DNA from: Candidatus Omnitrophota bacterium
GTDB lineage: Bacteria > Omnitrophota > Gorgyraeia > Zapsychrales > JANLHA01
DNA: 64,000 bases
NCBI GenBank assembly: GCA_020632535.1
Contig: JACKFJ010000002.1
Span: 120,245 to 184,244, forward strand
Direction: 5' to 3'
Below, in pieces: positions 10,156 to 61,100 of the stretch (positions are counted from its first letter, which is position 1; each line of letters begins with the position of its first letter). The position numbers and the translations under genes are program-made. Below the pieces are notes generated by a model that worked only from the letters and a program-made list of their open reading frames with translations, was not told where the DNA came from and ran no database searches.

Positions 10156-13100
10156 TTATCCTTCCCGAACTGTTACCAAAAAAGCCACAATAATCAAAGC
10201 GACAAAATTATCAGTATAATCCCCTTCGGGACTCGAATGAATATTGGAAAACGAAGTTGATCCGACACGGCCAAGATTCTCTCGAAAACTTAATAACCAC
10301 GCTCGCAATTGTGCCCCCATCGCATTAAATGGTCTAATTTTCCAATACCGAATAATAATATAAACAATATATTGAATTTTAATATACGAAATAATCTTTA
10401 TTCGTCTTGGATCTTTAGCGCCTTGCATAGCACTGATTTGAGGAACATTGCTCAAACTCAAAACATACGTAATCAATGACCGCGCCGATAAAATCAAGCG
10501 TGAATAATATTCACGAATACGCGCGCTCAACAATAATAAAGAATTCCCTAACCACCCTCCAAAGTTTGATGTTGCGACACCTTGTATTTTTTCTGATCCT
10601 CCTGACGAAAAATGAGCAAAATCAAATGCTTGCTCACCAGCAACTTGCTGCGAAAGTTTCTGAACAGCCAATGTCAAAATAGAAAAACTTCTTAAACCAA
10701 CTCCATCAACAATCACATTCATTTTATAAACCAAATCACCGACCACGAAAAAGACATTGCCTTGACTCAAAACAAATCGAATTGGCACATAATATCGTCT
10801 CTCTTTATCCAGCTTGACTTCACGACCACGCGGCAGAACCGGCCAACGACTCCAATACAACCTTTCTGAAATTTGCTGACGTTTAACCCTAGTCATTACC
10901 ATTACTAAAGTACTTTGATCAAATGCTTTGTTTATATTATTTCTTGCTTGATCACCAATAACCGTCGAACTAGCCGAGTTATTATCTTGCCCATTCTTAC
11001 CATTGCCGTTCTTTCCATGCCCATTCTTACCATTACGGATCATATCCATCAAACCATTGCGCTTGCCGTTCTTAACGAATTCCATCGCATCATAAAAATC
11101 ATCCGTATGAACTTTGATCTCAAGATCATCAGTCATTCTGCGGCTTAACTTTAGATAAACAACCGCATAAAGAATCGCCAATTGACTGATGTCATCTAAT
11201 TTAGAAAAACTATCGTGCATTAAAATATCACCTGAGTCAGACAATACAATGACTTGTCCTCGAGTTGGATAAGGTGTTTGTGTTATTAAAATATTAAGAC
11301 GTTGCGGCAATGTCCCGTTGAATAAAAACGAATGATTAACAATTTTAGATACCTGATTAAGCTGTTTGGTGATGCCAAGCAAATCGAATTCTACGCTTAC
11401 CCACTGTCCATCGCGACGCTCGAGTGTCAGTTGCTCACTCGAATTCACAAAAACGCTACGCTGTGGCAATCGATTAGCCTTAAACTCCGTATTATTCGGC
11501 TCTCGATTTTCTTTATACCAACCATACAAAACATCCATGAAATCAATTTCGTCAATTGCTTCCATATTCTTACGACCATAAATGATATCGTGGTCTCCAT
11601 CAATTTCGACAAATAACGATCCAGTCAAATCCGCAAATCTTCTATTCGTCCGCGATGGTGTCGTTGGATCATCTTTGCCGACGACAACCCAAGAATTCAC
11701 TTTTCTTACATTCCCCACAATTTCGGCCAACTCCTCCTGCGAAAATCGAATTGAAGTAAAAAGCCAAGCTGTTTCAAGCTGTTGCGTAATATCATTTTCT
11801 TCGGTTGATGAAGCTTGAATCAATTTGTTGTAATAATTATTTGATAATCCGCTTGCCAACAATATTCTCTTCATCGAATGATTATGTGTAGCCATCTGAA
11901 AGATAAGCAAAGCGCCCCAACGTAAATTTGCTGAAAACACTGTTGCGACACGAAACAGCCAATTGATAAATGGTGGAACTGTTAGTAAATCCTCATAAGT
12001 CATCGACGTGAATAATATCGCTTGAACGTGTTCATCAACAGCTCCCCAAACCGCAGGATAACCATGAACTTGTAAAATACGATCCGTCTCTGTCCTTAAA
12101 AAGCTACGCAAAACAATCATTGTCGCAAGTGAATGCGGGACAAGATAAACTTTTTTTGCGGTCACGGTACTGTAAAACTGTATTAGCCACAACAAGAAGA
12201 ACTGCCGACGAAGAATTGGATCCGTTTGCCCAGCAAATTTTTTCAGAAATTCAATATCTTCCACGCTAAGTTTACGTTGACCGATTCTAGGCTCTTGCCC
12301 TTTCGTTAAGCTTAGAATTGTTTCTGCGGTAAACCATTGTTGCGGGATAACAATCGTATCGTTTGGATGCGCCTGTTTTAATTCGGCAAGACTAAAACTT
12401 TGATTTGCAGAAAGACCATGCAAGAAAATCAGAACATTGCCATTATGATCTCCTTCGCTAACTTCAACGACATGTTCAGGAACAATTTCCGCGTCTTGAT
12501 AATGCCGATGCAGTGATGCTCCAGCTTTTTCAACCATAAACTCCATTCGCTGCAAGAATAAATTAATCCATGTCAAGATCGCGATAAGGATGCTTCCCGC
12601 GATGACAAATGAAATAATACCATGCGTAAAATGAGCCAATAAAGGAAACATAACAACAATGGCAATTGTAATATTTACGGTTGTGATCAATGACAATAAC
12701 GATGCGGAATAAATACCACGCTCCTCATTAATGTCCAACGCAATCCATCCCAAAAGAACGGCCGTCAATACCGTCCCAACAAAGGATATGAGTCCACCGA
12801 ACAACGGCCATAACAAACCACCAACGAAAAATGGTATACCACGATAAAACAATTCCTGACGAAAAGCGGCTGGAGTTTGTGCCACAAACCACTCCACAGT
12901 ACGCGAAATCGCCTTATAAAGTTTCTTTTCTTTATTTAGTGATGATTCTCGAATTTCTTTCCAGAATGACAAACCCGAAATAATTTTACCGTAATTTTGC
13001 AAAATCATAACAGGAACAAACGTGATAAATAAAAACACAGAAACACCTGCCAAAATCAAAACAGACCGCCAGCGAGGAGTACGATTGGATACAGAATCTG

Positions 13101-16100
13101 TTGATAAATTAACAGCGGCTTCTTTTTTAGTTTGTGATTTTATTTTAGATAGCTTTCGAATCGCAGGAATATACTGCAAAGCATTGAAAATCGCGTGACT
13201 AAAAGCATTAGGGAGAATTAGTAAATAAACGGGAGAATAAATCACCTTTTGCAGCAGAGTAATGGGCTCTTGAGATATTTTGGACAATGAAATTTTCCAA
13301 CCCGACCAGAGCGCATAGGCACCAATCATATGCACTTCTAAAAGATAATTGCCATGCAGCCATATCCACGAAGAGATCAGCGGAGACAACATCATTCCCG
13401 CCCACACAAACCCAATACCAAATCCTTGACGGACTTTTTGACGCTTAAGTTCTGGAGTAAAATCCGTGACTCTTTCAAAATGACGATTCAAAAAGCGATT
13501 CGGACGAAACGTCTCAAAGAATTCAATAACCGGCGCGTAAAAAACTTCAATCATCCAATTTTGAGGTACGTAAATTAAAAACGTCTCGCGTAAATATTTG
13601 CGGCCAGCTTCATACGTCGCAGGCAAAATTAATGCCGACGAGGCGCGAAAATTATTCTTTTCTCTTAACCATTGCGAGTAAGCTGGCCAAACTCCTTTGA
13701 GCGATTCATCAGACGTGACCAAAGCAAAATGATTCGCTTTCGCCGCTAAGAAAACTTTGACTTCCTTTCCTGCGATACGCTCAAGACCCATGGTCGAAAC
13801 TGGCGGAACCACAACATCATCACCACCCATAAAAACGGCAAGACGAATATCTTTTAATTTTTCGGCAAGAACCTTTGCGCCATCTCTCATCAAATAATTT
13901 TGCTTAAAAATACGTCTGGCAAATTGTGCAATCGCATCCGTCGCCAAATTCGGCGTAATCCACACCCACTGTCTAAACTTGACTCCAATAATAAATTTCG
14001 TTAATTCATCTCTAAATTGCTTAACCCCTGCCCTCAATGCTTCATCTTTTAATCCTTTTGATAAATCCAAGTTCTTATAAACAAACAGTCTCACCTGCAA
14101 CGATTCCCTCGCAGATAAATATCGTTTTACCGTTTTTTTCCCATTAATAACATCGTTTAAAATCTTTATTTGCGCAGGCAAATCATTCATGCTTTGTCTG
14201 ATAAATTCATGAATTTCTGGATTTTGCATCATCGCGTCCATGATCTGCGCGAAGGGACCCGCCGTCATACTTTCAAAATCTTTAATGCCATTAGCAATTA
14301 ATAAAAACTCCTCAAATTCACGACCACCAATGAGTCCTCCCGGATTCGTGGAAGCAATTGCTTCCACCATACCAATCATCAATTCATTCATCGCTAAAGG
14401 TCGCGCGTCAGCATTTAAGAAATCTGCTAAATCTGAATGAACATTTTTATAAGCCACAAGCTTTGGCGCAATATTCTCAAGATGTGTATCCACCGGAGCC
14501 GCTAACATTGTGATTGACGCAATCACTTCCGGGTTTAAATCCGTCATAGCTAATGCCAATAAGAACAAAGCGCCACCCTGCGAATAACCAATAACATTGA
14601 CTGGTCCTAACTGCGCAGCAGCTTCAATTTCTTCTTTAATCCAACGTGAATAATCTACCAAAGAATAATTACGTCGAGCTTCTTGCCAATACATGACATC
14701 TAATGAATTACCTTCAGCAATTAAAACTTTTATAACACTCATGTCTAAATAAGGAATGAGATCAATGATATGCGGCGCCTTCCAGAAAAACGGAATAAAG
14801 AATACCCGAGACTGCGATACACCCTTTGCCTCATAATGACGCATTTCATAAGGCCGATCCTGTCTTTCTGATTTCTGACTCGGAGCCGTTTCCACTTGCG
14901 GAAAACTGTCTAATCCCTGACCAAAACTATAAGCCGCCGCCCATTGAATAATATTATCAATCGTGTTATCTAACGTCATTCCACGACGAAATGCTTCTCG
15001 CAAAATATTATCAATTGCCGATTTAAACTTATCTTCCACTTGCGCAATCGTCACTTGCAATTGCTCCGTTCCAGATTGATTCAAATTATCCATAATATCT
15101 CTCGCGTTCGAGAATGGATCACGAAACGCCATACCCAACAAAGCCTGCGATAAAATCTGAGCTTTTTTAAGAGCACTTTGCAATGTATTCTCTTTTCGCA
15201 TCAGAACAGGAATAATCTGTGTCATAAATGTAGCAACCAAGTCTTTGATTTTGTCTTCAGATTGCGCGACCAAGAATTCGGTTCTACGATTCTCATTCTT
15301 AGCCTGTGATCGTCCCGCCAATGCGCCAAGAATATAAACCAAATTGGCAGCTAAATCACTTTGATCTTCAGCATATTCTTCAGACAACACAATATATTCT
15401 GACTCCCCATCTTTAATTTGATAAATTGTTGGCACTATCAAAAAGTCATTGAAAGTTCCCATGCGAATATGATCGGAATATATAATTTTTCTAAAAACTT
15501 TGGCTAATTCAGAATCGTGATGCTCCAGCCAATACAACGCCACATCAATAGCCTTATGTGTTATCTGACTCTTAACGCGGCCAAGTCCCCCCTGACTCTC
15601 AATCACAAAACGCAAAGCATACATTGCGCGCGCGTACTGTTCGCTATGTTTTTGCGCAAACTTCAAAACACTTAGGACAATATCAATAACCAGTTGATTT
15701 GCCTCTCGACTTTGCGAATGTGTAAGAAAATAAACCAAATTTCCACCCGCTTCTTGTTCTTCTTCAATCATTTTCAAAACATCAAATGCAATAAATTCTG
15801 GATGTGACAAGATCCACGAAACACCTAAACTGTTATCTTTATTACCCAAAGACAAGATTTTTCTCAAAACCTGAACGACAACAGCGCGGTCATTAATTTT
15901 ATGCAATTTATAAAAATTACCAGCCCAATCAAGGCCATCATGGTCAATCATATTACGCGCGACACGGTAAAGTTCTTCAACCGCTTGTGAATCCGCAATC
16001 GACGATGAAGCAGATAAGCGACGTTCTTGCGGATACGGATGAATGTCCATAATCTTGCCTACTTTAATAGCATCAATGACCCTTTGCCAATATTGTGCAT

Positions 16101-19100
16101 GAAACAATTCACCATGTGCTCGCTTAAATTCAGAAACATGCTCCTGCGAAACATACCAAGAGGTCAAAATAATGTTTTCAAACTGCTCAGGAAAGAAATC
16201 GTACGGCCTAACCGTTACTCTCTCGCCAAGAGGTTTCATTTCATCATCATCATTACGCGCAGGTGGAATCTTTCGTGGATTCCAGAGAGCGATAGGGTCT
16301 AAATCATCGTAATCATATAAAACAACCCGACCAGTAGATGTAACACCATAATTTTTAGGAAAGAAATCACCTGCAAATAATCCAATACCAATAATTTCCT
16401 TAAGAGCTTGACCATAGTCATCAACTGTCCTGCGAAGTAATTCCGTGTCTATCGTTTCTTTTAAAAAAGTATCTAGCGGTGTAATCTTTAATTGAATAAA
16501 AAGATCTTTAATAATAATCGTCTCTCCATCGATAATTATAGAATCTGGAGCTCTTTGCTTTAATTCTTCAAGCACTTCTGGTGTAAAATCGGCCGTCGCA
16601 AATCGAACATTGGCATAAATCATCGCATCAAGAAGCCTTCCCGCACGATCCATTTCATGGACTAATTGATACTTTGTTTTAACCATTGCCTTCCCGCCTC
16701 GTATATCATAATCTTCTTTCTCAGAATGATCAGCGGCAACTTTTAGAACATATGGAAAATCATTGTTAAGAGTAAACGTGACCATCACCTTCCCCTTGGT
16801 TCCCTTTGCGAAGACAAATTTGCGCTCTGGATGAGTTAATTCCTCTGCCATAGATATTGTAATTTCAACCTTAGCCGGATAAACAAGCCCAATAGCGGCC
16901 AAGAGAAAAGCTCTATCCTTACCACCGGCGATCGTTTCAATAAACTGAATGATCTCTCGATAGTGCTGAATATCAACCATAAAATTCGCGCGTGTTGAAG
17001 CAAATAAAATACCACTGACATCATTATGGTTCATGAGTAAAGCATCAACGACAATACCAGTTTTGCCTTCTGGATGCGTTAGCGCAAAAACAAGTGGTAT
17101 CGTTTGTCCTTGAGAAATGATTCGACCCATCAGATAAGCTCTTTTGTTACGATAAAAAATTGGATTTAACATCTCAATCATATCGTATCGACGAATATTA
17201 TATTTAGCCATTTCTTGCTCAATGCGCTCTTGACTAAGTCGAATATCGCGATCTAAATCTTCAAACGGAACATTAAAATGAACCCTCATAAAGATTTGGC
17301 GAAGGACACTTTCTACCGAGATTTGATCATGATCACCCGAACTTAACAGGTACGATGTATATGGCTGATTTTGCAATGTGTATTGGATAGGAGTATCTTT
17401 ATGAAGACGTTCATCTTGATATTCGACGGGAATTCCCTTGTGAAGAAAAACACGACGAAAAGCCGAATCAAAGAATTGCATTCCAATATCATCGTCGTAA
17501 TCTTGCCGCAAGCGCTTTTCATAACGAATACGAAGATCTGCCCAAACTGCTGGGTCATCCATCTGTTTACCAAAAATCTTACCAATCTTCTGAACAACAA
17601 TCGTTACGGCTTGCGAACGAGATTTATTTCGATTTCTTTGTTCTCTCTGCATACGATTCCAATCACGAGTTTCAAAAGCCTTCTTGGCAACACGATGAGC
17701 ATTCTTGAAAGCACGAAATGAAGAACGAAATTCCTTATGAATGATACGGGCACTGCGATTCACCATTTCTTCATACATCCGTTCTTTAAAAACTGCCGAT
17801 GAGGAACTCAACACAGCTGTAATTAAGAATCCGCTCTTTCCTTCCAAAATTCTAATATCATCGAAAGCATACTCTCGTAACATATCATTAAAAGTCCAAC
17901 CCAAAAGATGAGCTCTTCCCGCATAAACAACCCCTGCCAATTTCGGCAAAACAATAATTATCCGACCAGAATTCTTTAAAATCCATGAAGCCTGCTTAAT
18001 AACTTGCGCTAAAATGTCAACATAGAAAATTATACCGTTATCGTCAGGCCCTGCTCCACGAGAGATTAAAGTCTTCCCAAAATCTGTCTGCATTGTGTTT
18101 TTATCAACAACTATATGATGCAATGACCTATTAAAAACAACTAAATCCATGGAGTGTTCCTCTAGCACTTTGCTTAAAGCGGTTGCATCGCCATACACAT
18201 GTGTTATTTTCTCTACGACTACTATCTGGTCACTTGCAAATAAATCCAACATTGTCATCCTATGCATGCCGCCAAGAAGTAAACCTTGTGCTGGAGCCGA
18301 ATTAGAAGCTGAACCCACATCAACCCCATTTCCTTGAAGCGAATAAAAAGCCGCTAATGTCTCAAACAACAATACGTCTTTATCATGATCCAAATAATCG
18401 ACAATTCTTTCCTCAATTGCTGACGAGGCCAAATTTCCTTTTCGTATTGCCTCGATACGTGCGTATAACTCAAATGCCGCCGCATTATCAGTAACTTCAT
18501 GAATCTTTACTTTGCCGTCGGGCATTATCACAACAATATACTCGTATGGCTCAACACTAATGCGGGGGAAAAGAAGATACGTAGTCTCTTTATTATCACG
18601 ATCCAGCCCCATACTTCTTCCCAGTTTCAAGAAAAAGAACCGTGGCAGAGAGGAGCCTTTAATCACAATCGTTAAAATATTTCTCTTAATCTGTGTTGTA
18701 AAGTTTTCAACGGCTTCCACAGCTTCATAATCAAAAATCTGAATCGGATTTGTTTCCTTAGGCTCAGCGAGATTGGTGTCGCGCAAATCGATATTACTTT
18801 CAAAACGCACTTTAATGCGCAATTCATTAGCCTTACGTCTGACAAAACGTTCAATCAATGTTGAACGCACTACAAAATCTTTAAGCCCGCCGGGTAAAAG
18901 CAATGGCGCGTTCTCAAGAATGACAATCTTCCCACCAATTTGTCGAGCAAATTTAATTAATAATGGGGCGTCATATGCTTGACGCAACTCTGCGGCTAAT
19001 CGCACAAAAAGGTCTTGGTTATTATCATTATAAAAAGCAATCCCCACGCCATCACCTTGGCGTGTCTCAACAATCTCGCCTGTTTTTTGATCAATAACCA

Positions 19101-22100
19101 AAAGATCAGTATTAATTCTGGGATCATCCAAAGTATTTTGCTCTTTCGAAGATCGATCAACACTGAGCGTCATTTGCTTTTCATTACCTGTCTGAGGATT
19201 AACAGTCGCGAGATATCCAAAATAATCATCATTAATAAATTCACGAACAATAATCGAAGGATAAAATCGACTGGCATCAAATTGATGCCGCTGAGCGCTA
19301 TGCGCCCAATCTTTAATTCTCACCATCAAGTCCACCCACTCATCGTCAAAGTGGCGTATCCATGCTTTTTGAACCATTTCAATAATATTATCGGCGGTAG
19401 CAATTTCCGGCAGCGTTCTTTCACCAAATAAGCGCTGATCCGCCATAGAAGATAATTTCACGATCGCTGTTTTATTACCTAAGGTTTCACGATAAGCCTG
19501 TTTGATCTTTGCTTTAAATTTATCAGACAGTGTAAGCCGTCGAACTTCATCCTGAACACGACTAAACTTATTAGGAAGCTTGTCATTAAGAATATCCCCG
19601 ATAGCTTGATCAAACTCAGCAAATCTTTCCCTCCTGAAAATATTTCTTAAGACAACAAAACCAGCAGGAATTGCAACATCATAACCTTGTTCACGAAGCC
19701 TGAGAGCAACTCGATGGATCATCGCTAACCCATAGGCATTTACACCCGCAATATGTGGATCTTTAATACTTAACTCATCGAGACGAACCACATCCGCGGA
19801 CGTATCCAAACTCCGTACAAGTTTTGAATAATATTCAATCAAAACACGATCATCATCTAATCGAAATCTGCGACTTGCCGAAATTATCGATTCAATAACA
19901 AATCCGATATTCTCCTCTTCAAATGTCGAAAGTTTTAATCGTTTACGGATGACTTCTAGTCGTTCAATAATTCTTTGTGTTGTTTGAAAACGTTTTTTAG
20001 ATTTAATGACTTCAGTAAATTGCAATTCTTTCAAATCAAGCGTCGTAAGATCATAAGCGAATCCCGTGAAGTATCTTCTCTCCGCAGGAGTCGCCCTTTC
20101 AATAATTCGACGTTGTGTTATTTGCAGCCAGACAATAAAGTCTTGATATGCTTTCTGTACCTCGTCCTTCTTTCGCGTCGCCCTAATAGCCCTAAGGGCA
20201 TTATGAAGACGAATAGTTGCTACCACTTCTAGACGCTTATGAACTGTCTGCTTGCGATGCGCAATAAGATCTTCGTCGCTCTCTTGATAAAAATGCCCTA
20301 ACTCCTCAATATAATCTTCCATAGACTTTTCATATTGCACAGCCATATGCTTAATCATGTCAAGCTCATGAGATAACCAATACCGGATAAAACGAATCTG
20401 CCACCATGAATCTTGCGCCTCTTCATCAAGTCTTTCGTAAGCTTCATCAAATCGCTCTGCGACAGCAGCATTAATATCAAAATTTTTCGGTGAATAAATA
20501 CCCTTTAAGCGAGTGTCGATAATTATCTCTTGTCCATCATTCAAAAGACCGTAACCTTCTTCCGTAACCGTCGCCCAAGCAAGTCCCAAAAACGCGCTGC
20601 GACTGACCGTATTACCAGTTTGCGTAATCAATCCGCGAATTCCTGTCTTAAACAAATTACGAAACTCATTGATCGAAAGCTCTTTAGCAACAACAACTTT
20701 ATCTTTGTATGCCGCCACATCACCATTACCATTTGTCCAAACCTTAATCGGACCATAAGCAAAACCATGCGATAAAGTTTCAACAGAAACAATAGCCGAC
20801 GAAGCAGACGTGCCGTTTTGTGTAATCTCATCGACAAGATGGGTGACAATCATATTGCTATCAGCCTTCTTAGAAAAATTCACAATACATTCATGAATCG
20901 CCGCTGCTTCTTGAGTCGTGAGTAAATTTTCTTCGCTAAAAAGATCCCAAATCTTACGAACTTCGTCCCATTTCCAATGACGTGACTGCGCTCTATTCCC
21001 GGTAGGTTGAAAAACAATCGCTTCCGCAATCGGTCGCGCGATAAAGTTGGACTTGCGTAATAAATCCCCTTCCATCCGTGTTTTAAAACCAAACATGAAT
21101 AAATACATCAAGCGGGATAAATCATCGCGACGCTTTAATAATTCATCAATCAATTTTTTATCCAAACTATTTTCCATACTCAAATCAACGATCGCCGCGT
21201 AAATAAGCTTACCAAACCATCCTTTGGACAATTGATCACGTAATTGCTGGCTAAGTTCCTTATTTTCGTCATGAAGTTGTTTTTGTGCTGCAACCATACG
21301 CTCTTGCATGACATGCAAATCAAACAATAGCGGCAACCCAACGACAAGAGCCTGTTCTTCGGTAAACCAATCTAAATAATCTTCTACTTTAGTAACAAGT
21401 GCTGCGATCAACTCTTGCTCGACTTTGATCGAAGCAAAATCACTCTTCTCTAAAGTAATACTTTCTAATTCGGCAATTTCTCTTTGCAAACCTGCCAAGA
21501 TTTCGGCCTGCAATTGATCAACACGCGCTTGAAGCATGACTTCTAAACGATCACCACGACTGTCTTGATTGCCATATTCCTCTAACTGAGCGAATTGGAC
21601 TTCCAACTGTTTAATCAATACATACAAAGCGTCCAAACTTGCAACAGCGGTTATTTGGCCGACGAGTTGATCAAATTCATTTTCTAAAGCGATGATGTGC
21701 GAACGATCTTGTACATTTGATAATTGTTCTAATAAAATCTTTCCTTGTGCTAAATCATCAGCGGTCAATCCTAATTGAGCGCGCTTCTTATCCGCCTTTT
21801 GTGCATCTTGAATTGACAAAATATCGTCTAAAAGCTCATGACCACGTTTAGCATCACTTTGTCCAGCCAACCACGCCTGAACACGACCACGATATTCTTC
21901 TTGAATCACCTTTCTTAAAGAAGCCTTTTTATAAATTCGCTCATCCTGCACTAACTTCACTAAAAATGCTGTTTCAACTTTTTCAAATCTTCCTGCTAAA
22001 GCCTCCGCAGCCGCAACAAACAAGTCATTATCCTGAGCGGCTAATAAAGATTCGAGTCTTTGCGTAATTTGAGCTGATTGACTATTAGCCACCATTAACT

Positions 22101-49100: not shown

Positions 49101-52100
49101 ATAAATTGTGAGTAATGATAACGGTACCGGTCTCACCTAAGAACAAATTAAATTGTCCATCATGGCGATAAAGTTTTTCCATATAAACAGGTCCAAAACC
49201 GGTTTGCCAATCATTAAAGTGCAAGATGTCAACCTTAATCCCTAAAGCAACCGCAATATAAAATGGTGCCTTTGCTAATAAAATGGCTTCAATATATCCA
49301 TAAAGACTGTCGGTATATCGGCTACGAACAACTTGCGAGTACCGATTCGCATCAAGATCTTTTTCCGCCGGATACAATGATGGTTGAAGCAATGTCTGTA
49401 AAATCTTATCGGTCGGATAAAAGCGTAAATATCGAACACCGTTGACATCATTTTGTGTCACATTCATTGTCAACTGACCACTTCCCATCGGAACGGTAAT
49501 CGACGTTAGGACAATCCCTTGTGGCATCACAGGTTTTACGACCGGTGAATATTCAGCCTGATAACCCGGATTAATGACAAAGACCATATATCCAGCTTTT
49601 TCGAGAGCTTCAGCATATTCACGAATATAATCACCTTGACCACCCTTCATCGAAACACCCTCAGCAGCGACTAAAAACACAACTTTCTTACCGGCCGCCC
49701 GAACAGCGACAACCTGATTTTGTATATCCTCAATCAAAATCTTTGACTGTTCATCATGGCCTAATTGACGAACATAAACATGACCATTACCATATGGCAG
49801 TTCTGCCCAAACTTGACGATTTCCAAATCCTTCAAAAGCCACTGTAAATTCAAAATCATCACGAGCTTCAACACGAATCGCATAAACCGCGCGACCATTT
49901 TCAGTGTTTCTAACCCAGTTCATCGGTTCATCTCGCCATTGACCTGTACGATTCGAACGCAAAATCACATGACGTTGTTCACCCATACCACGCGCGGCTT
50001 TATCATCAGTCGCGTAAGCGACTCCCTCAATATTAACCTGTTGACCTGCAGCAACGTGATGAACGCGTTCGGCCAAAAACCCACCATTTTGAACCATTTT
50101 CTTGAAATTAAATTCCGAATAAGATTCTTCCTGAATGCGGATATTAGCCAAAGCCCAATCTTGAGCATGCTGACCCGTCGAACTCATACTTTCAACATGT
50201 CTAATATTTACAGTGCTATCAAAAATATTTTTGGATAAATTAAATCGATGATCCCATTCATCCACAGCGCACATACCGGCAACACTAACACTATTATTCA
50301 AAACAAATTGTTTAATCGCTTCTAAATCCCAATCTTGAACTTTCTGCGCGACTGGTTTATGCACAAATCGACTTTGATAATGAATTGTTTGAACGCGAAC
50401 ATTTAAGTCATTTAAAACATCCATCATTTCATTTAATATTTCAGCAAATGTCCGCACCTGCATCGCGTTGCGATAAACGTAGGCACCCACCAACGTACCG
50501 TCAGCCATAAACCCGCGCAACGCGAGAAATTCACTATCATTGTTATTTGCACTCATTCGTAACATATATACGTCCGCCTGAGTTTGTTCTACCATAACGA
50601 TCACCCATCCCGCTTTAATGACAAAACTATTAGCTGGATATTGAGCTTGCATGGAGTAGTTGTTATCCCAAACATATTGTTTTGTGAAAGCATCCTTGTA
50701 ATAATCCGGACGGGCAGATTGAACTGCAGGGATATACGTATACTTCTCTTCTGAATCAATTACACGATAAGAAGCGATTTGACCAATTTCGAGTTCATCT
50801 AAAGCCGTCATGGTTTCAAACCATTGATTGACCTGAAGAACATAGTTTAAGGATGCGTTCGGAAGACGGCTGACAAGACGGCTATGAACAGCGGCGCTTT
50901 GTCCAACATGAAGAAGATGATCGATTTCGTCGGTAATAATTAATTTGAGGGATTCATAAAGGTGCGGTAAATATGCTGCGCTTTCTTGTTCTTCAATGAA
51001 TTCTGGTGGCGCGCGTAAAGCACGATACGAAAGGTAAATCTCGCCATGACGAACATAAGCGATTTCGCCAGCGTCACCGTGTAAAATCAACTTGATAATT
51101 TTGTGAGTCGATTCGCCAAACCAGACCAATTTATCATTTTGTGTTTGCTGAACAAAAGCATAATTGATAGCATCCGCAAATTCTTTCGCAGGAAAATCTT
51201 TCAAATCAGCCGGCAACTTACCCAACTTACTCATGGTCACTTTACCAGTGCTCGGATAAATGCGAACCTTAACATTTAGTTCAACACGCGGCAATCCACG
51301 AAGCGCGGCAACATAAAGCGGGAAGCCATCTTGATTAATCGCGCTGGAGGCGGCATTGCTATGACCAGAACCAACAGACTTAATTTGTGTAGCGTAATTA
51401 TCTAATTGCTTACGGAAAGAATCCACATCCATCGCATTAACGCCGATCGCAGCAATGACATTTGCAGAATGTTGTAGAACTTCTTTAACCGTTCCTTCAA
51501 AAATACCGCCGGCAACAATAATCGGCAATTGGGCATTAGCTTGTCTGACCGCTGTGAGGAAGTTTTCTGCAGCATCCGCAGAACTTTTCTTTAATTGACC
51601 AAACGGCTTAAATAACACGACATCGACGTCTTTGGCCACAGTATTGGCAACTTCACTTTGAACCATTGTCATATCAAGCGGCAAGTTCAACGTCAATTCA
51701 GAGATAATCACGACATTCGCATTATTGCGGCGAATATTAGCAACGATTTCTTTAGTCCAGTTAGAACCGATAAGAATGTTAGCACCTTTGCGATTAGCTT
51801 CTAAGGCGCTGACTTCATCATTGACGAAGAACGCGACGATTGCCGTTGCATAATTTACATCTTGACGTAATGATTCCAAAACATCCATACGATCTAACGA
51901 AGGAATAATTTGACGATCAAGAAGTTCTTTTGCAAAATTCACAAGAAGCGTGGAATCAAGTGCCGCATAACCTTTACCGCCGGTAGTTGTGTGTAACCCA
52001 GCTTCAGCGCGGAAAGATTGTAATACTTCAATCACCTGTTGACGATTATAAACACTAGAAGATACACGATTCTTGACTTGCTCGACACGCTGATCATTTT

Positions 52101-55100
52101 CCAAAGCCCATTTGACAGTTTCAAGTTCATCACCATTGTTGACCGCAGAGCTGGCAGATGTCGAATTTTTGGTTTGAATATATAACGGTTCATAGCTGCC
52201 ACGTTTTAGAAGCACCGACGTTTCATGCACTTGTTCCACATCGCCCCACATATCATGATCTTGTGTGCTATAAACAACAACATTAACTGTCTCAACGATA
52301 CGATCAACTCTGATCATGTCCGGTGTATATGAACCTTGTTGCAAGTTTTGAACATAAGCAATCTCACGCTGCATAATCGCGCCAATTTCATACTTAGAAA
52401 CAGACTGTAAAGCTTTTTGAAGTTCTTCAGCGCGGATCAAATGAATACCTTTTTCCTCTAAGATTTTACGATATTCGACGGCGTATGGTCGAAAGACCGA
52501 TTCAGTCGTTTCGTAATATAATGGGTCTTTGCTCGCCATCTCACGTTCACGTGCTGCATCTCTCCTCGCACGGATGTACATGATAAATCCAGCAACCACA
52601 CCAATAGCAACAAGCACAATTAAAACCATTTGACCGATTGTTAAATAAGCCGCGATAGCGGTGATTGCAGAAGATGATTTGATATCGGTCAAATTCTTAA
52701 CTTTGCTATCCGTACTTGCGCTAGAAGAATTTTCTTCACCCTTCTTATTTAAGGCTTTGATCTTTTCTTCTTCCTTTTTGATCTTTTCTGCGGCAACCCA
52801 CTGATTAATTTGTTCCATTTCCTTTTCTGCAGATTTTGAATCTTTTCCAAATGCGGCAAAGAAGAGAAGGCCGGCAATAAGTACAGGAGATAAAATACTC
52901 AAAAAGATCAACACTGAAACATTTAAAATCGTCGCTAAAAATACTGCTGGCAAAATCCATGCGGCAATAATACCGCCTGTTACAGCCAAAGTGTATTTCG
53001 TATTCTTAACATAACCATTTTCATTTGGACGATTAACACGAGTCTTAGCACCCAAATAAGCGATCTTAATAAAGATGCGGCTGCCCCAAACGCGTTCTTC
53101 AACCAATGTGCTATACAAGAAATCACGGAACCCTGTCAATGTCCATTTATTCACAGTCAAAACATTAGTAGCCCCGCTAGTAACCAAGGCAAAAATTGCA
53201 ACGACCATCAAAACGAAATTGATCAACTGCACTAAAGGATTGTTCCAATTGACAATACCAGTCACCACCATAAAGATGATTGAAGCAAAGAAGACTAAAA
53301 GACCTTTCCACCAACCAAACATAGCAAACAAATCCATACCCTTTAAGTGACGACGGGATTCGCCATTTATCGTCCCTGCTTTAATGCCAAACAGACGAGC
53401 GAGACCATCAAGCTTAAAGAATGCTAACCAACCATTAAATTTCGAAACAAACGTATTATATGCAAATGTACCCGTCAAGAATGACGTTGACGCAAGCATA
53501 TAGACTAAGGTAATTGCTGGACCAAACGGTGTCGTACTTAATAAAGCAAAGAACCAGCCGAGTTGACCAAGCATACCGACAAAGCCGTCGAATGGAAATG
53601 CTTTCTTAAACTTTGACAACATGATAAAGCCGAAGAGCATCACAATCGGAGCAATAATTAATAATGCTGTCGAAATCCAAAGCGAAGCAAATATATGCAA
53701 AATAACAGCGAATATTTCTAAGCCCACCCCAATTCCAAAAACAACTTTACCTGCATTCTCAGTACGATTAACATTCAAACTCAACACCTTGGTATTTTCA
53801 TAACGGGTCTCAACACTCCATTTACTTAAGTTTGGCTCTTTGGCGGTACGAATAAAGCTAAAACTTTCATTCGATGCATAAAAGACACCCTTAACGAAAC
53901 TGGCAATAAGATTGACATAGAATGGGAAGCCGGCCATCGTTTCAATCAGAGCCATCCAAATCGCCTTCAAGAAGCTACCCGTCAATCGTAATTGACGTAA
54001 GAAGTTATGCAAATTGATCGCTTGCATCAAGAATGTACTGACGCCGGCGAATAAGAGAATCGGCGTTAAAAACGCGAAAGAACTAAATGTCGCGCCAACC
54101 GGCAAGAAGATCAAGAGTAAGACAGCATTAATCGCAGTAAAGTAATGAGCAAAGAACCCTAAGTGAGCAAGCTTCACATCGTAACCAATATCTTTATTAG
54201 TGAAGACTTCAAATTGCCCACGATCCATCATAAAGCGAGTAACGTTAAAAGCGTAACGGGTTTCAGTAGCGTACAAGGATTCAGCCAAGAGTGAAGGACG
54301 GCCCCATTCAAACGTAAGCCAATCTACCTGTGTCGAAAGAACATTCGGATAAGAACGCTGCATAACTAAGAACGCGCCAGAGTCTTCACCCGGAGGTGTT
54401 AATAATGTATCGCCAGCCGCCGGTGTGATCAAAGCCTTACCGTAGAACGTTGTCATACCACGACGTGCTCTTTGAACATCAGACGTAAACGTTTCTTGAG
54501 AAACTTTGTATAAACGGGTAACAGGGAAAGCCCAATTGCTAGATGCCCAAATGCGCATGTTCGGGTTAACAACAACAATTTCCGGATTGCGGCCAACTAA
54601 AGAAGCCCATGATGTTGTATAAATGTTTTGCCCCGGATACACACGCACATGTGCGTCTAAGTTCATGCTACGTCCGTATGTTGCCCAGAGATTGATAACA
54701 ATATTACTGTTCTTCACACCCAAAACTGGATTATCTTTCGAGCGATCGTAGAACGGTAAGTAGATATCGTTCTTGATCGTTTCACGAATAACATATGTCA
54801 CGTGCATGGCTTGTTGCCAAGCGGCGATCCAAGCCGTCGGAAGCGTGCCAGTATTACGAGTACGAATGAAATCAACAATATTTTCACGACGGAACTGATC
54901 AAAAGTATCCGCAAGCGTAACCAAATCTTTAGCGCTAATCGTTTTTCCTTCACCACTCCAGAGTCCTTGTTCTTTTAAGAACGCAAGAAGGTTGGCAACT
55001 AAAGGAACTTGTGATTCGGCAAAGAAACCGGCAAATGGTCCTTCTTCTAATTTATATTGTCCATCATTTGTTTTACCCATCAATTGACCCCAGAGTAAAC

Positions 55101-58100
55101 CTTCACTGAATATGCCACGAACTTTTTCATTGGCTAATGCGCGATACATTTCATATCCTTGCATAAAGACTTCGCGAACGGCGACATCACGAACTTGTAC
55201 GGCACCTTCCGCATAAGCAGCGGTCAATGTCCGATACTTAGCTAAAACGTCATTTAATGCTCTAGCGTATTCGAAATCCGCATTTTCGTTAGCAAGATAA
55301 ATATGCATTTCATTGATGTTCTTAGCTTGACTACGGGCAACAGAAATGTTAGCCGGACGAACTTCATTCATCAATTCTTCAAGAGCCGTGATGACCATCA
55401 TAATTTCTTCCTGTGACAACCCTTGCTCAAATAAACGAATCAATTTTTGATTCATATTAGAAAATTCATCAGAGCCCTTGAATTCCTTGATAATCAATTG
55501 CAATTTGTCAGCGGATATTCTGCCGGCCAAAAGATTGATTTGATTATTGAATTCTTCCTTAAAACTACGAATCAAATAACCCAAGAGCGTGGTGTTGCTG
55601 ATATGACGCAAATCTTCACGATTCTTAATCAAATAATCTCTATCGCTTTTATTTAAATCCTTTATACCTGCGACAATTTCAACAACATCCAAATCTGTTT
55701 GTTTAGTTCCTTCGATAGATTGATAAGCAGCGGCAACGCGAGCAGCAGCAATAATGAATGCTTTTTCTTCAAGGCTTAAATTGACAGCCTTATTTACTAA
55801 AGCATTAAGATCTTCAACGCGGACTATCGATTCCACAATGGTAGTAATATCAGCTTGCTTCTTCTTATACTCAGCCAAAGTAATTCTCATGTTTTTCTTA
55901 TTACGAGCCAAAATCATACCCATCACAAGATTGATGAGTTTAAACTTATCTGGAATATCAAATGAACCGGATTGCATATCATTTTCAAAAATATGCGCGA
56001 AAAGTTCACCGTATGCGGCAACGTGACTGGATGTCGGCTGTAAATGTTCCACAACATCGGTGGCCGGTTTCATCTGGCTTAATGAGAAGAATTGCTGATA
56101 AAAGACTTCATAACCTTTTTCGGTATCAGGAAGCATAAACGTAAAGGCATTCGGATTAAGAATGACTTTGACATTCGCATCATAAACTTGCTTGCTGATA
56201 CGGCCTTCTTCTTTTTCGATTAAAAGCATGCGTAAGAAATAGTTCTCGATGGTTTCACCATTAGGCGTGATCGCGCCATAGCGGGCTTCGATTTCGAGAA
56301 ATTCTTGATACCATTTCGTATAGAATGCGCCATTCTTAATACCATTCATATCTCTATTTAATGCCTTCAATAACCAGATCGAACGGGCCGTTTTGCTCCA
56401 TGTCGTAGTATTCAAAAGCAAGTAACTCTTCACAACAGTAAATATATGCATAAAAGTAATTAAGGTCGGAACAAACATAAGCACGAATAATCCAGCTGTG
56501 ATCGCAAACCCTAATGTGCCAAAATGGATAACAGCAAATTTCCAGAAGACAAAATGGGTAATCCAACCTAAGTACAATGTTGTTGCAGTAAATGTTGCAA
56601 CCCATAACCATTTTTCAGATGAGAAACGAACCTTACCAGCCAAAAGCGTAGGTAATCCAGCCAAGAACATCATAAAGATATACCCTAAAGCCGCATAACG
56701 GGTAGCAACAATAATATATCCGCCGCCCAAAATACCAACCAAAGCTAAAGCGATCACTAACATACGCAAAGCTTTTGAATGAATGGCCCAGAAGTTTTCC
56801 AAGCTTCTAAATTTGCCCGGAATCTTCATGACAAAGCGAGCAATCAAAGCACCGAAGAACATCGGACCCAAGATACGGATACCAAACAGATGAATAATGC
56901 CGCGCTTATTATTTGTCATTTCATCTGCTTTAGCTGCATATGGAGACTTTTCTGCGCTTAACTTCATCGTTTCTTGTTTAAGCAAGCTTGTAAACGGGAT
57001 CACTGTTTTTCTAGCGTGATCCAAAATGTCAGAATATCCCAACTTTGTTTTTAAGAAAGCACCGTACAGCTCTTTATGCTTGGCAAGAATTTCTTCTAAA
57101 CGAACTGTAATCGCTTCGAATTTCTTTTCATTGGAAGCTTTATTGTCGGCACCAAATTCATGATCAAACATCGCAGTAATGACACCATTAAATTGAACCA
57201 AACCTTGCTCACCCTTGTTTGCCAAACGGTCAAAAAGATCATGCACGTCAGTATCAACAAGGATCTCATACAAATGAAATTCAGCTTGGGCTTGTTCGAG
57301 CGGCGGCTGTGTAACTAATTTCCATAAACCAGCACCAAAATGAAGCGGCGCATACCAATTATTCAAATGGAATAAAGCCTTCCAAAAACGAGCATAAGTG
57401 TGAATATGCTCCATAACAAAAGCGGCGTCCTTACCTATAGAAAGATTTTTAGCCGCTTCGCGAACAATAAACAGCGTTAATGGATAGTTGAATGTTGTCC
57501 CACCCAATGAATATTCATTGGTTTCGCTCGGAGGAGATTGTAACAATTTCACAAAGATATGTTCAAAAACCGTTGTTGCTTCAACATTCGGAGTTGTCGG
57601 ATACGGATTATACTTTGCGGTTAAAACTTCGCCAGCTTTAGCGATGCGAGACGGATACAAGGTGAAGAATCTCTTTAATTCGCCAACAACGCTAACAAAG
57701 AGCTCATTGATAAATGCAGCATTTTTAATTGTGCTCTTTGAATAAGCATTAAATGTCTTATTAAGAACCTCATCAAAAAGTGTTCTGGCGATGCGAGTCT
57801 TAACACTTTCGACAAAGAGTCTCATGCTCGCTCTTTGGCCGTGACGTGCAACATACGCCTGAGCTTGACCAGCAAACACAGCATCGGTTTCATCACCAAA
57901 GTATTGTGTATCAATTAAATGCGCCAAAACACGGACAGCTGGTGTTGGCAAGAGCGTGTTTAAATCTTCGCGGATATCTTGACCTGCCGCCAATGCCTGA
58001 AGCGTACGATTTTCGACTTCGATAACAAGTGCTTTCAATAACTGTGCCCAACGCAAACTGTCATTATTAATATTGATCTGCAAACGACCATTAATACTTT

Positions 58101-61100
58101 GCAATTCTTTTTCACTGATTAAATTACGAGTAATAAGTTCCTTTAAGACAATCGCCGGAGAATAACCCTTAGCGGCCGCAACAAAAATTTGAGCTTTCAA
58201 GGATTTCTTAAGATTAAACTTCACAGCAACCTCACGTAAGCGCGGATCAATTTCTTTAATATCTTTGAAACTTAAGCGGCCACTAATAACCATTCTAATG
58301 ACAGCTTTTAATTCTGTGACTGTTAAAATACGCGCCGATCCTAAATATCTAATCAATTCCTTCCGAACTTTATATTTGCTGTCGATATTGATCGTCAAAT
58401 TAAAGACTGAATTCATCTGACGAATGATGATCAATGCCGTCGCGATGCTGTGTGTCATACCCTTGATCTTCATCAACTGAGCATACGTAGCAAAGTTCGC
58501 ATTCTTGCGGAAACTAGACTGACGAACGAATTTCATCACCCAAACAACAGCGTACGGCGCGGTAAAGAAGATCGCGATAAGTGCTAAAATTCCAAAGCCC
58601 CAAACTGTGCCAGTATTGTATTGACGAGCGCCTTCGTTAAAGATTTCTTTCGGAATCGGTAACCCTTGGCTAACGTAAAGTGTTAAGATTTCGCTACCTT
58701 TAGCTTCAAATGCTAAACGAATATCCTTAACGTTGTCGCCGTCTTTCATAAAGCTAAACGGATTATGGATTCCGCCGATCGTGATGGCTCCGATACCGGC
58801 ACGTTCCAATAACCACGTTGTCGGAGCATTACGAATTTTATCTCCCAGCGTATTGTCATAAACATCCAAATTCGTCGAAGTTCCATCAATACGGGCAAAT
58901 AAACGACCATTTTTCAAAATACGGATATCCGGAGAAGCCACCGGAGTTGGCGATTGGATATTCTCCTGCAACATCACAAAAATATTCCCGCGAATCTTAT
59001 CTGGCCAAGCACGAATCGTATACAAGCTATACAATTCTTCTTTAAGCGGGTCACCTTGATTAATACCGAAGAAGTTCTCAAATCCTCGGACCACTTTGTC
59101 TTCCAAAGTTAACGGTGTGTTTTCATTAAATAAAGCACGATAAATATCCTTAGCATTGCGCGGTAAGCGAGTTGTCCACATCGGCAAACCGTCACGAGAA
59201 GAAATCTTATATTCTTCATCAACACGGAACTCATCAACAACGCCAGTCTTGTAGTTAAAGAGAATCAAGATGTTTTCATTCTTATATTCAAGACCGTCAC
59301 GATAATCTTCCGTAACATCATAGATATATTGATAAATATTTTTGTCCTGAACAATGCGATGCGTGCGATATACGGTCGCACGAACGATGCGCCCTAACTC
59401 TTCGTTGTACGAAGTTTCACCCGAAGCAATACCCGGCGGGACATCAAGAGACTTGCCGTTACGATCAATCGTCGGTTCATATTTCATGAAGCGCCAATCG
59501 CCGCTATCAAACTTGACAAAGTCGCGTGATAAAGGATCGCGAGCACCTAAGTAACGGGTAAGAACCGGTGCTAGAATCTGTTCAGTCGCTGGATCAATAA
59601 TCAAATTACGCTTGATCTTAATTAATTTTTCTTGAGTAAAGACACCCGCATTCTCGCTGCGCAATCTATTCATAGTTGCAGAGGAAAGGTTAATTTCATT
59701 CTTGAAGAAATCTTGGACAGTCATTTCGCCATCTTGGTCTGTTTCTTGTTTGAAGATCTGACCAAGATAAGAATACTCATAAGCAACCGTTGAGTTTTGA
59801 CCAGCCCACACTGTGTTAATGATCGTATTCGGATTCTGATCGCTCGTGATAAAGACGAGAACACGAGCCAAAGGATCTTCTTTAATGCGGAAGAAGAAGC
59901 GAGTTCCATCTTCATTGAAAGTAACGCGACCCTTCACGAAGCTGAATTTATCAGCATTAGCTTTATCTCCGGTCAATTCAAGAGCAACCAATTCAAGAGC
60001 ACCGCGCAATTTTGCGCGAGCATTGGCTTTAAGATTGTCCGCAAAAACCAAATCTTGCATAAGCGCGTCTAAGGCAACGTCTAAATTGCCTGTGGCTTTA
60101 AATTCCTTAACGCTATAACCGCGAATGACTTCTTTATCAAGTTTAAAGCTATCGCCTTCTTTAAACGCTAAGTACGTTTGGCGGGTCGTCTTTTTATCAT
60201 CGATCGTATTTTCATGTTCGATACGGAATTCGATCAGATACCCTTCGCGCTTGACATATTCCGGTAAACGGTCAATTTGAGCGACAACAGTATCTTTGCT
60301 TTCATTAACAAGGAAGGAGCGAACAAACTTGTTTTCATGATCACGTTCTTCGGAAATAACGAACTGATCATTATTCATAAATTGCAATTCTTGTGACAAT
60401 TGATTCAACGTCTGCTTCGTGCGAGATGTTTTTCCAACCACATCATTCGCGTTAACCACGGCTAAAACTTCTCCATTGCGAGTGATGATTTCATAATCGC
60501 CTAAAACATTCGTTTGATAATAATAAATCGGACGAACTTCATCTTTGTTGTAACCGATTACGATTTTACCGTAAATCTTCTGATCGCCGGCGTTGACCTT
60601 AATCGTCTCATTGGTGTAATACGATTCAAGATATGTTTCACCCTTGGTATCGACACCAAACACACGCTGAATAATACCAATATGATCTTTACGTTCTGTC
60701 ATCGTGATTTCTTTATTATCAATCGTCACAGCGCCCTGTTGAGTCGTGTAAGCAATCGGCTTAATTACAGCCTGGCTGCCTAATAATTTCTTATTGAATT
60801 CTGCTAAGCGATAAATTTCACCACGTTTTTCGTTAAGGACAACTTCGGCTTCCGCGTTTTGTGTTTCATATGGAAGGTAAACACGAACCATCTTGCGATC
60901 ACCACCATTACCTAAGAGCGTGATCGATTTAGCGGTTTGGCGAATCGCAGCGAAGTTTTCTGTCTTTTCAAATTCTGCGATTGGAACATAGTAAGATGTC
61001 TTTTTCTCATCTTTTCCGATGACCAAATAATGTGTCGCTTGTAAAAGATCTAATGTCGCATCTCCAACCGTGTTGTAATCCAAAAGGCCAAGCAATGTTG

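Follow-up and report, generated by a model that had tools for sequence, protein, structure and literature searches.

A recurrent junction peptide and hairpin-built membrane modules suggest a polyprotein-like organization for a 17,932-residue Omnitrophota protein

Giant genes fill a large share of the small genomes of Omnitrophota, a phylum in which giant open reading frames (ORFs) occur frequently and show little conservation (Seymour et al. 2023, PMC10066038). Giant multi-enzyme proteins rich in transmembrane (TM) helices have been described there (West-Roberts et al. 2023, bioRxiv 10.1101/2023.11.21.568195; Nielsen & Lui 2026, bioRxiv 10.64898/2026.06.07.730766), and the questions asked of them are whether each gene yields a single product or several and on which face of the membrane the enzyme domains lie. 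In the catalog of Nielsen & Lui 2026, 94% of 916 giants carry TM helices or signal peptides, 46% form a "TM-only" class that is read as membrane-anchored cytoplasmic domains, proteins of at least 10,000 amino acids (aa) have a mean of 22 helices, and starch synthase is the most recurrent family in a "multi-enzyme metabolic cluster" class. West-Roberts et al. 2023 state that they could take their analysis no further because no cleavage points were known. Here, we analyzed a stretch of 64,000 nucleotides (nt) of contig JACKFJ010000002.1 (assembly GCA_020632535.1, Candidatus Omnitrophota bacterium; hereafter, the window), which carries a minus-strand ORF for a protein of 17,932 aa, the giant. A short junction motif recurs along this protein at the ends of whole enzymes, its TM segments are confined to six modules, and this organization suggests a polyprotein-like chain.

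The giant is a member of the Omnitrophota multi-enzyme TM-only class and the phenomenon is already known: the ORF exceeds 10,000 aa, holds many families and TM helices, and lacks a signal peptide. With that class it shares the phylum, the single ORF of more than 10,000 aa, a set of many Pfam families with none dominant, and an essentially unique sequence, and its starch-synthase/GT1 module is the most recurrent Pfam of the catalog. About 3% of its residues lie in TM helices, compared to about 2% reported, and hydropathy scales together with low-confidence AlphaFold2 secondary structure give 26 to 31 helices, compared to a reported mean of 22 for giants of at least 10,000 aa; the class itself was defined by DeepTMHMM. 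The publications differ from our account in giving total helix counts, calling the topology ambiguous, and treating cleavage points as unknown. Neither giant-gene preprint (West-Roberts 2023; Nielsen & Lui 2026) mentions a hairpin organization, a junction, linker, or cleavage motif, or a depletion of Cys, and no paper in the collection searched links Omnitrophota with the term "polyprotein."

Two other systems invite comparison. Archaeovorin- and dockerin-type proteins (West-Roberts et al. 2023) are also giant, TM bearing, and from Omnitrophota, and cleavage into products has been proposed for them as well. In contrast, dockerin, SecA_DEAD, C39/S8 peptidase, and carbohydrate-binding domains were not detected here (Pfam to E = 0.5; those authors used structure-based detection), and the giant is under half their length. 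Viral polyproteins such as the nidovirus and flavivirus replicases likewise place many enzymes in one translation product, with a short conserved site between units and with hydrophobic anchors. The gene of the giant, however, is carried by a bacterial chromosome, the searches detected no protease in cis, its cleavage is a prediction, and the modules are ordinary bacterial enzymes.

The ORF is uninterrupted, whereas the other two minus-strand frames hold 1,047 and 1,739 stop codons over the same 53.8 kb, and its GC content is even along its length (0.38 to 0.43). No N-terminal signal peptide is present, and the N terminus has no hydrophobic core. A BLAST comparison of the protein with itself gave no internal repeats (E < 1e-3), and it is thus not a repetitive adhesin. 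The ORF and the junction sites within it are as follows.

Positions 10156 to 63954, minus strand: giant ORF, 17,932 aa, ATG start, no in-frame stop codon.
Positions 13630 to 52677, minus strand: junction array, first Ser at aa 3761, 3935, 3965, 4203, 5370, 5860, 5879, 6363, 7344, 7626, 7633, 8172, 8433, 8901, 9492, 10315, 10700, 11178, 11817, 12281, 13222, 14385, 15177, 15385, 15983, and 16772.
Minus strand, within the giant: five near-variants of the junction, at aa 6613, 7893, 12774, 13494, and 17662 (ASSTV).

The junction motif, [A/S/G/V]-S-S-[A/P/S]-[V/I/L] with the consensus A-S-S-(A/P/S)-(I/L/V), occurs at 26 sites compared to 0.74 expected (maximum of 5 in 300 shuffles), all of them between aa 3761 and 16772. 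The shorter forms SS[APS][VIL] and SS[AP][VIL] occur 26 and 19 times, compared to 2.8 and 1.9 expected. The Ser-Ser pair is written in a mixture of five codons (TCT, TCG, AGC, TCA, and TCC), which indicates selection on the peptide rather than on the DNA and rules out a DNA-level signal at the junctions. Internal translation starts were also rejected: a Shine-Dalgarno sequence with a start codon lies near 1 of the 26 sites (random rate, 0.116; about 3 expected), and Met is depleted around them (9 of 26, compared to a random rate of 0.57).

The 26 junctions divide the giant into 27 segments, of which 24 are protein sized (170 to 3,760 aa) and 3 are spacers of 3 to 26 aa. None of the junctions falls within a recognized domain. 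Searches of Pfam, NCBIfam, and PDB sequences recognize about one-fifth of the chain, and the families found are GT5/GT1, NTase, GNAT, RelA_SpoT, ACT, HTH (three), LOG (two), TPR, AceK, and alpha/beta hydrolases, with none dominant and with the NTase and GNAT matches both weak. The recognized domains are cytoplasmic-type activities that need nucleotides (ATP, GTP), nucleotide sugars (ADP-glucose), or DNA. The modules that matter here, including three C-terminal ones that we call M1 to M3, are as follows.

Positions 47854 to 49692, minus strand: glycogen/starch synthase of the ADP-glucose type (aa 4755 to 5367), 37 to 39% identical to stand-alone enzymes of ~612 aa over their full length.
Positions 33013 to 35469, minus strand: RelA/SpoT-type module with a C-terminal ACT domain (aa 9496 to 10314), delimited by junctions and collinear with long RelA.
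Positions 29164 to 31587, minus strand: XRE-type HTH domains (aa 10790 to 10846, 11534 to 11597, and 11769 to 11795).
Positions 24340 to 25512, minus strand: two LOG/SLOG domains (aa 12815 to 12973 and 13102 to 13205), in one module with the hairpin of TM cluster 6.
Positions 16009 to 17790, minus strand: full-length AceK, isocitrate dehydrogenase kinase/phosphatase (aa 15389 to 15982, 594 aa), with a junction at each end.
Positions 13660 to 14841, minus strand: PhaC-like alpha/beta hydrolase (aa 16372 to 16765) with the lipase box G-Y-S-Q-G.
Positions 13159 to 13563, minus strand: M1 (aa 16798 to 16932, ~135 aa), a new conserved membrane-associated module in which P, H, W, P, Y, and N are invariant.
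Positions 11077 to 12507, minus strand: M2 (aa 17150 to 17626), a membrane-anchored alpha/beta hydrolase in which the HG motif, H-S-x-A, Asp, and His are all invariant.
Positions 10159 to 10968, minus strand: M3 (aa 17663 to 17932, ~270 aa), a basic C-terminal domain preceded by the variant junction ASSTV.

The junctions stand at the ends of these enzymes. AceK is bracketed exactly by the junctions at aa 15385 to 15388 and 15983 to 15986, which leave 594 aa between them compared to 578 in Escherichia coli AceK. Its homology (aa 15402 to 15983) covers profile positions 13 to 577 of 582 with 467 bits, and the module keeps the catalytic Lys, Asp, Asn, and DxD. Homology of the synthase to a stand-alone 610-aa enzyme stops at aa 5367, and the junction ASSSL follows at aa 5369 to 5373. 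Position 1 of the RelA/SpoT profile projects to about aa 9501, some 5 residues past the junction at aa 9492 to 9495; position 349 of 350 in the PhaC profile falls at aa 16765, with a junction 6 residues later at aa 16771. Finally, P0014, a 257-aa relative that aligns to M3 only, maps about 10 residues past the variant junction at aa 17662. Each of these module ends lies no more than about 10 aa from a site, the placement expected of conserved sites between the whole-protein units of a processed precursor. In addition, the modules that follow aa 7633 and 8172 (positions 39430 to 41061, minus strand) begin alike right past their junctions, with VPRSWHESILPHEIVLTNV and QRNWHEDILPQKIKLVNIV, in a chain for which the BLAST self-comparison reports no repeat.

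Some observations on individual modules stand apart from this argument. Polyhydroxyalkanoate (PHA) synthases have a catalytic Cys where the PhaC-like module has Ser, and this replacement in G-Y-S-Q-G fits the avoidance of Cys throughout the protein. Directly before ASSTV, aa ~17640 to 17662 (positions ~10970 to 11030, minus strand) form a low-complexity linker, NGKNGHGKNGNGKNGQDNN. M3 also sits at the extreme C terminus of other large proteins (P0013 and P0016) and closes with hydrophobic residues in alternation; a role as a signal for sorting or secretion is possible. M1 is present twice in each of P0018 and P0020, which are Ala/Arg-rich proteins.

With respect to the membrane, strongly hydrophobic, charge-free segments were recovered by Kyte-Doolittle, Hessa-type, and GES/TopPred-like scans at all seven places that the original prediction, made from the DNA alone, had named as TM clusters. 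The third of these places spans aa 3264 to 3794 (nt 52573 to 54165) and comprises the hairpins of cluster 3 together with a separate helix, 3l.

Positions 52675 to 63954, minus strand: module F0 (aa 1 to 3760), with neither a junction motif nor a database domain, bearing T1 and clusters 2 and 3.
Positions 58534 to 58605, minus strand: T1 (aa 1784 to 1807), a single unpaired TM helix with 4 Lys or Arg (K/R) on its C-terminal flank.
Positions 56461 to 56898, minus strand: cluster 2 (aa 2353 to 2498), tight hairpins aa 2398/2421 and 2449/2476 plus a borderline helix at aa 2353.
Positions 52849 to 54165, minus strand: cluster 3 (from aa 3264), five tight hairpins, aa 3264/3291, 3404/3427, 3457/3479, 3551/3575, and 3656/3681, plus a borderline helix at aa 3331.
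Positions 52573 to 52641, minus strand: helix 3l (aa 3772 to 3794), a single TM helix 7 residues past the first junction (SSAI, aa 3761 to 3764), with the C-terminal flank RARRDAAREREMASK holding 6 K/R.
Positions 46078 to 46233, minus strand: cluster 4 (aa 5908 to 5959), probable hairpin aa 5908/5944, 25 aa past the junction at aa 5879.
Positions 43813 to 43950, minus strand: cluster 5 (aa 6669 to 6714), tight hairpin aa 6669/6693 in a 46-aa charge-free run.
Positions 26224 to 26370, minus strand: cluster 6 (aa 12529 to 12577), tight hairpin aa 12529/12556 in a 49-aa charge-free run.
Positions 12559 to 13425, minus strand: cluster 7 (aa 16844 to 17132), 5 confident and 2 borderline helices, including hairpin aa 17086/17111; it overlaps M1 and leads into M2.

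Because of the great length of the protein, these segments had to be judged against shuffled controls. Windows of 19 residues with a Kyte-Doolittle mean of at least 2.2 number 17, compared to 3.7 ± 1.9 expected (200 shuffles; maximum, 9), and 22 runs of at least 25 residues lack D, E, K, and R, compared to 6.0 expected (shuffle maximum, 16), with seven of the runs reaching 46 to 58 residues. At the usual cutoff of 1.6, 29 windows were observed compared to 36.5 in shuffles, which is not above chance. We therefore disregarded the weak segments at aa 4809, 4888, 8578, 11924, 15682, and 16451, several of which lie inside recognized globular domains and none of which appeared on the earlier list. 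Tight hairpins account for most of the helices, with 10 to 11 helix pairs joined by turns of 1 to 9 residues. A single-sequence AlphaFold2 model of aa 5880 to 6740 (predicted local distance difference test [pLDDT], 37.6; usable for helix breaks only) renders cluster 4 as two helices with a break at aa 5941 to 5943 and cluster 5 as two helices. Across the ten clear turns, K/R number 2, and the twenty 15-residue outer flanks hold 46 in 300 residues compared to ~34 expected from the background frequency, a consistent but modest bias.

A tight hairpin returns the chain to the side from which it entered. Since clusters 5, 6, and probably 4 are hairpins, they do not put the enzyme blocks that flank them on different sides, and the NTase, RelA/SpoT, HTH, LOG, AceK, and PhaC-like blocks should all lie on one side. 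Side changes are possible only at the unpaired helices (aa 1784, aa 3772, and possibly aa 5944) and in cluster 7. Moreover, TM segments occur in only 6 of the 27 junction-delimited segments: F0 (aa 1 to 3760), a large polytopic block; aa 3765 to 3934, with a single N-terminal anchor; aa 5883 to 6362, 6367 to 7343, and 12285 to 13221, with one hairpin each; and the C-terminal module, aa 16776 to 17932. The remaining modules are soluble and include several whole cytoplasmic-type enzymes (glycogen synthase, RelA/SpoT, LOG, and AceK), XRE-type regulators, and the PhaC-like hydrolase. The topological puzzle that the scattered clusters had seemed to pose is therefore largely resolved by hairpins that mostly do not switch sides and by a modular chain. 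This organization also explains why whole-chain predictions look implausible, as one miscounted helix flips everything downstream. The sidedness of the modules and the timing of membrane insertion are inferred.

The junction motif is shared with proteins that do not align with the giant. The gene order MutS, MutL, and a long minus-strand ORF is kept in six other Omnitrophota genomes (loci L003, L004, L005, L006, L011, and L018), and sequence similarity of these long ORFs to the giant, or of one to another, is almost undetectable. A tblastn search of the giant against 80 MutS loci gave no match at 1e-5, and blastp gave only one weak match (26% identity to the L005 ORF), so the syntenic giants cannot be aligned to the one described here. 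Nevertheless, SS[AP][VIL] is found at 10 sites in the L004 ORF (0.43 expected) and at 5 in the L006 ORF (0.18 expected), with none in the others. When the C-terminal 1,163 residues were used as the query of an exhaustive search by HMMER, only ten relatives came back; among the proteins related through this region, P0011 has 8 sites (0.49 expected), P0013 has 5 (0.38), and P0016 has 4 (0.29), while P0021 (7,861 aa, a cluster mate of P0013) has 19 SS[APS][VIL] sites compared to 2.2 expected. In several large relatives, the junction motif is the most overrepresented 4-mer. A junction lies ~13 aa past the end of the synthase homology in P0001, and the motif-rich proteins are also poor in Cys.

The syntenic ORF of L004 (positions 14517 to 22553, minus strand; metagenome-assembled genome [MAG] JACROV010000083) contains NUDIX, LpxR (E = 4e-65), and Fic modules, and LpxR is an outer membrane beta-barrel enzyme, a lipid A deacylase. 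Ten residues past a junction (SSPL, aa 697), there is a complete, textbook Sec signal peptide, …SGLKR-AFVIFLVAVLPAFFFA-QSSSA|AQP…, with an n-region ending in KR, a 16-residue hydrophobic core, and an SSA|A cleavage site, and LpxR follows it. An outer membrane barrel with its own signal peptide amid cytoplasmic-type modules could hardly function unless it were freed near the junction. As a separate observation, the C-terminal 1,628 aa of the L018 long ORF repeat LEQYLPPEPV 7 to 8 times, a repeat style that differs from that of the giant of the window, and the ORF has no Cys.

Cysteine is almost excluded from the giant. Only 2 Cys occur in 17,932 aa (aa 4562 and 14356), encoded by one TGT and one TGC in frame compared to hundreds of these codons in the other frames. 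In contrast, MutS and MutL contain about 1% Cys, and stand-alone homologs of the giant's modules also contain Cys.

Taken together, we give about an even chance to the reading that the giant is a chain of polyprotein type, in which the TM clusters are parts of membrane modules. The gene would then be an operon written as one ORF, an in-frame head-to-tail chain of about 27 protein-sized modules with junction peptides between them, which a protease would cut at or near the junctions. The TM clusters would then anchor the membrane-bound products or make up their bodies, and the remaining products would be freed as soluble proteins. If the chain were cut at aa 3761, helix 3l would become an N-terminal anchor of the ordinary kind, its positive flank facing inward, and a cut at aa 5879 would leave hairpin 4 just 25 residues from a new N terminus. 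The original prediction had offered two alternatives, and the one in which TM segments anchor processed fragments is the better supported, although indirectly: junctions bracket whole enzymes, and the L004 relative places a signal peptide before LpxR, whereas no protease was found in Pfam or NCBIfam searches. In a more specific form, the giant would be a true bacterial polyprotein, cut at 26 or more junctions by a dedicated protease into about 27 proteins bound for different places, with the chain or its products perhaps handled outside the producer's cytoplasm, possibly as effectors sent into a host cell; this we propose tentatively, at somewhat less than an even chance. In the giant, the destinations would be the cytoplasm and the inner membrane, and in the syntenic relative they would extend to the outer membrane, and the exclusion of Cys hints at extracytoplasmic handling.

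Several observations weigh against this polyprotein-like reading. Cleavage at the junctions is a prediction, and the motif could instead be a conserved hinge, a structural linker, or a modification site. Some of the segments that it delimits hold several domains, and three are only 3 to 26 aa long. Hydrophobic segments past junctions are no more common than chance (5 versus 4.1), and we dropped the idea that TM segments generally follow junctions. Helix counts are based on hydropathy and on AlphaFold2 models with pLDDT of 37.6 and 49.5, and the K/R excess in the hairpin flanks is, as noted, small. F0 keeps one unpaired helix (T1) behind 1,783 residues that lack a signal peptide.

Pfam and NCBIfam searches of the giant returned no peptidase family. 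A cysteine protease in cis is unlikely in a chain that holds 2 Cys, and the processing protease could be encoded elsewhere in the genome and act in trans. Signal peptidase I is an unlikely candidate, since Pro is allowed at motif position 4, the −3 position is variable, and no hydrophobic core lies upstream. M1, considered as a CPBP/Rce1-like intramembrane protease on the basis of a motif resemblance, was rejected: its 7-sequence profile misses Rce1 and any protease in PDB, its members have no Pfam match, and the E..R and F...H motifs, separated by only ~4 residues, fall outside its hydrophobic segments. M2, a module that motif-bearing relatives share, retains a complete Ser-Asp-His triad. As a processing protease, however, it draws only weak, general alpha/beta-hydrolase matches: its profile matches mostly esterases, and Foldseek places proline iminopeptidases and a thioesterase on top without significance (model pLDDT, 49.5).

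The best-surviving alternative, which we regard as possible but doubtful, is that the chain stays intact and that the junction motif serves as nothing more than a flexible linker of a standard type or a site of modification. It is consistent with the missing N-terminal signal peptide, with hairpins that hold both flanks, modestly K/R rich, on one side, with recognized domains that use ATP, GTP, ADP-glucose, or DNA, and with the failure to find a protease in the giant. It is also how Nielsen & Lui read their TM-only class (46% of 916 giants), and the ten residues upstream of the junctions are somewhat more polar than average (0.59 versus 0.53; P = 0.013). In an intact chain, however, the unpaired helices at aa 1784, aa 3772, and possibly aa 5944 leave the topology frustrated. 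When the full chain was enumerated in TopPred style by K/R content, the best charge-bias solutions had to take aa 5944 as a single helix, they put aa 3795 to 5943, including glycogen synthase, opposite the RelA/SpoT, HTH, LOG, and AceK blocks, and helix 3l, with 6 K/R on its C-terminal flank, ends up on the wrong side. A synthase block opposite the other nucleotide-dependent enzymes is implausible. Helix 3l and T1, both unpaired, therefore either flip the 2,150-aa synthase block or break the positive-inside rule. Nor does an intact chain account for 2 Cys in 17,932 residues beside MutS and MutL with their ~1%. It cannot hold for the L004 giant, where LpxR with its own signal peptide stands between NUDIX and Fic, and a mere linker would have no need to preserve the same five residues in proteins that are otherwise unalignable.

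A second alternative, which we consider improbable, casts the giant as a multi-effector toxin similar to MARTX that a predatory or parasitic cell exports, with F0 and the C-terminal module inserting into a membrane and the enzyme modules being released in the host. MARTX toxins (PMC2900308, PMC6315884, PMC4453568) are very large and carry arrays of unrelated enzyme domains, which are released as effectors by cuts in the linkers between them (PMC2900308, PMC6315884), and their end regions are proposed to act at the membrane; the likeness to the giant is one of size and array. The exclusion of Cys provides the main support for such an effector array and is at odds with a purely cytoplasmic life of the modules: leaving out Cys is a known signature of exported proteins (PMC2823432), it sets the giant's modules apart from their Cys-containing stand-alone homologs and from MutS and MutL, and the neighboring signal peptide-bearing ORF (positions 2840 to 5458) has 0 Cys in 872 residues. 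In our judgment, the domain set of the giant and its relatives (RelA/SpoT, LOG/SLOG, GNAT, NTase, Fic, NUDIX, LpxR, and hydrolases) also resembles toxin and effector repertoires, and published work proposes that Omnitrophota are predators or parasites and reports a giant protein that rises 3-fold on prey attachment. However, neither a secretion signal nor RTX repeats, a protease domain, or a secretion system gene was seen, and the flanks hold MutS, MutL, and a membrane/coiled-coil set. Unlike MARTX toxins, the giant has no cysteine protease domain, which would be hard to fit with 2 Cys, and no type I secretion genes are in view; it has TM-grade hairpins and is ~4 times longer. Those hairpins are as hydrophobic as ordinary inner membrane helices, so the producer's own membrane should capture them. 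Glycogen synthase and AceK would be odd effectors, and the Cys argument is correlative.

The other half of the original prediction, that the chain weaves through the membrane at each cluster and puts successive enzyme blocks on alternating sides, found little backing, and we consider it very improbable. The placement of aa 3795 to 5943 opposite the later blocks in the intact-chain enumeration speaks for it, as does the fact that published topology predictions for such giants often put enzyme domains outside the cell (West-Roberts et al. 2023). However, clusters 5 and 6 are single tight hairpins, cluster 4 probably is, and clusters 2 and 3 are built from hairpins, which cannot change sides. Enzymes that require nucleotides or DNA would be useless outside the cell, and placements of this kind, where predicted, are "highly unlikely" in the words of West-Roberts et al. 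themselves (bioRxiv 10.1101/2023.11.21.568195). Last, that the ORF is an assembly or annotation artifact, or that the hydrophobic stretches are buried cores of globular domains, is a reading to which we attach next to no probability and which the data have already largely refuted: hydropathy windows at 1.6 are no more common than in shuffles and some weak ones lie inside globular domains (the synthase at aa 4809 and the hydrolase at aa 16451, for example), but the named clusters, tested against this idea, are 46- to 58-residue charge-free runs outside every recognized domain, the frame stays open over 53.8 kb beside stop-rich frames at even GC, and six other Omnitrophota genomes have a syntenic long ORF behind MutS and MutL.

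Besides the giant, MutS, and MutL, the window holds three smaller minus-strand ORFs, and a tRNA scan of it found none.

Positions 8327 to 10153: MutL.
Positions 5571 to 8129: MutS.
Positions 2840 to 5458, minus strand: ORF of 872 aa with a clear N-terminal signal peptide, one weak TPR match, a long K/E-rich coiled-coil-like region, and no Cys.
Positions 2024 to 2812 and 1459 to 2022, minus strand: two small polytopic membrane proteins.

The best match of MutS, at 83% identity, comes from the Omnitrophota MAG JADLGJ010000072, and seven of the eight next matches (58 to 67% identity) are titled Omnitrophota or Omnitrophica, which assigns the organism to this phylum; an exact look-up of the MutS sequence gave no record. 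The ORF at positions 2024 to 2812 has a weak Pfam match to coronavirus NS3b (E = 1e-4, under the family cutoff) that is probably spurious. Type II/IV secretion, pilus, or glycoside hydrolase genes flank 13 of the 14 largest giants (Nielsen & Lui 2026; West-Roberts 2023) and are frequent in the class without being a strict requirement. Here, in contrast to those secretion and pilus genes, the visible 10-kb flank holds MutL, MutS, the secreted TPR/coiled-coil protein, and the two small membrane proteins, and none of the three kinds of gene was found in it; on the other side, 46 nt are visible. Among 5.8 billion proteins, aa 2338 to 3817 and aa 7344 to 8905 (together ~3,000 residues) have no detectable homolog; aa 15300 to 17300 gave no matches in the genome contigs searched, and the AceK module gave none in metagenome contigs. 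In metagenome contigs, the M2 profile matched once, on a 2.6-kb contig.

The junction motif provides the first concrete candidate cut sites in these giants: it is statistically overwhelming, selected as a peptide, common to giants that cannot be aligned, and located at the ends of whole enzymes. With the junctions as guides, giants can be divided in silico so that structure and topology are predicted module by module, and a partner protease can be searched for by phylogenetic profiling. Together with the exclusion of Cys and the internal signal peptide of a relative, the motif turns an open question into one that proteomics can test. If the junctions are mere linkers, the giant is still an ordinary member of the class already described. 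If the polyprotein reading is true, the giant genes of Omnitrophota would be "operons without stop codons" with a defined processing code.

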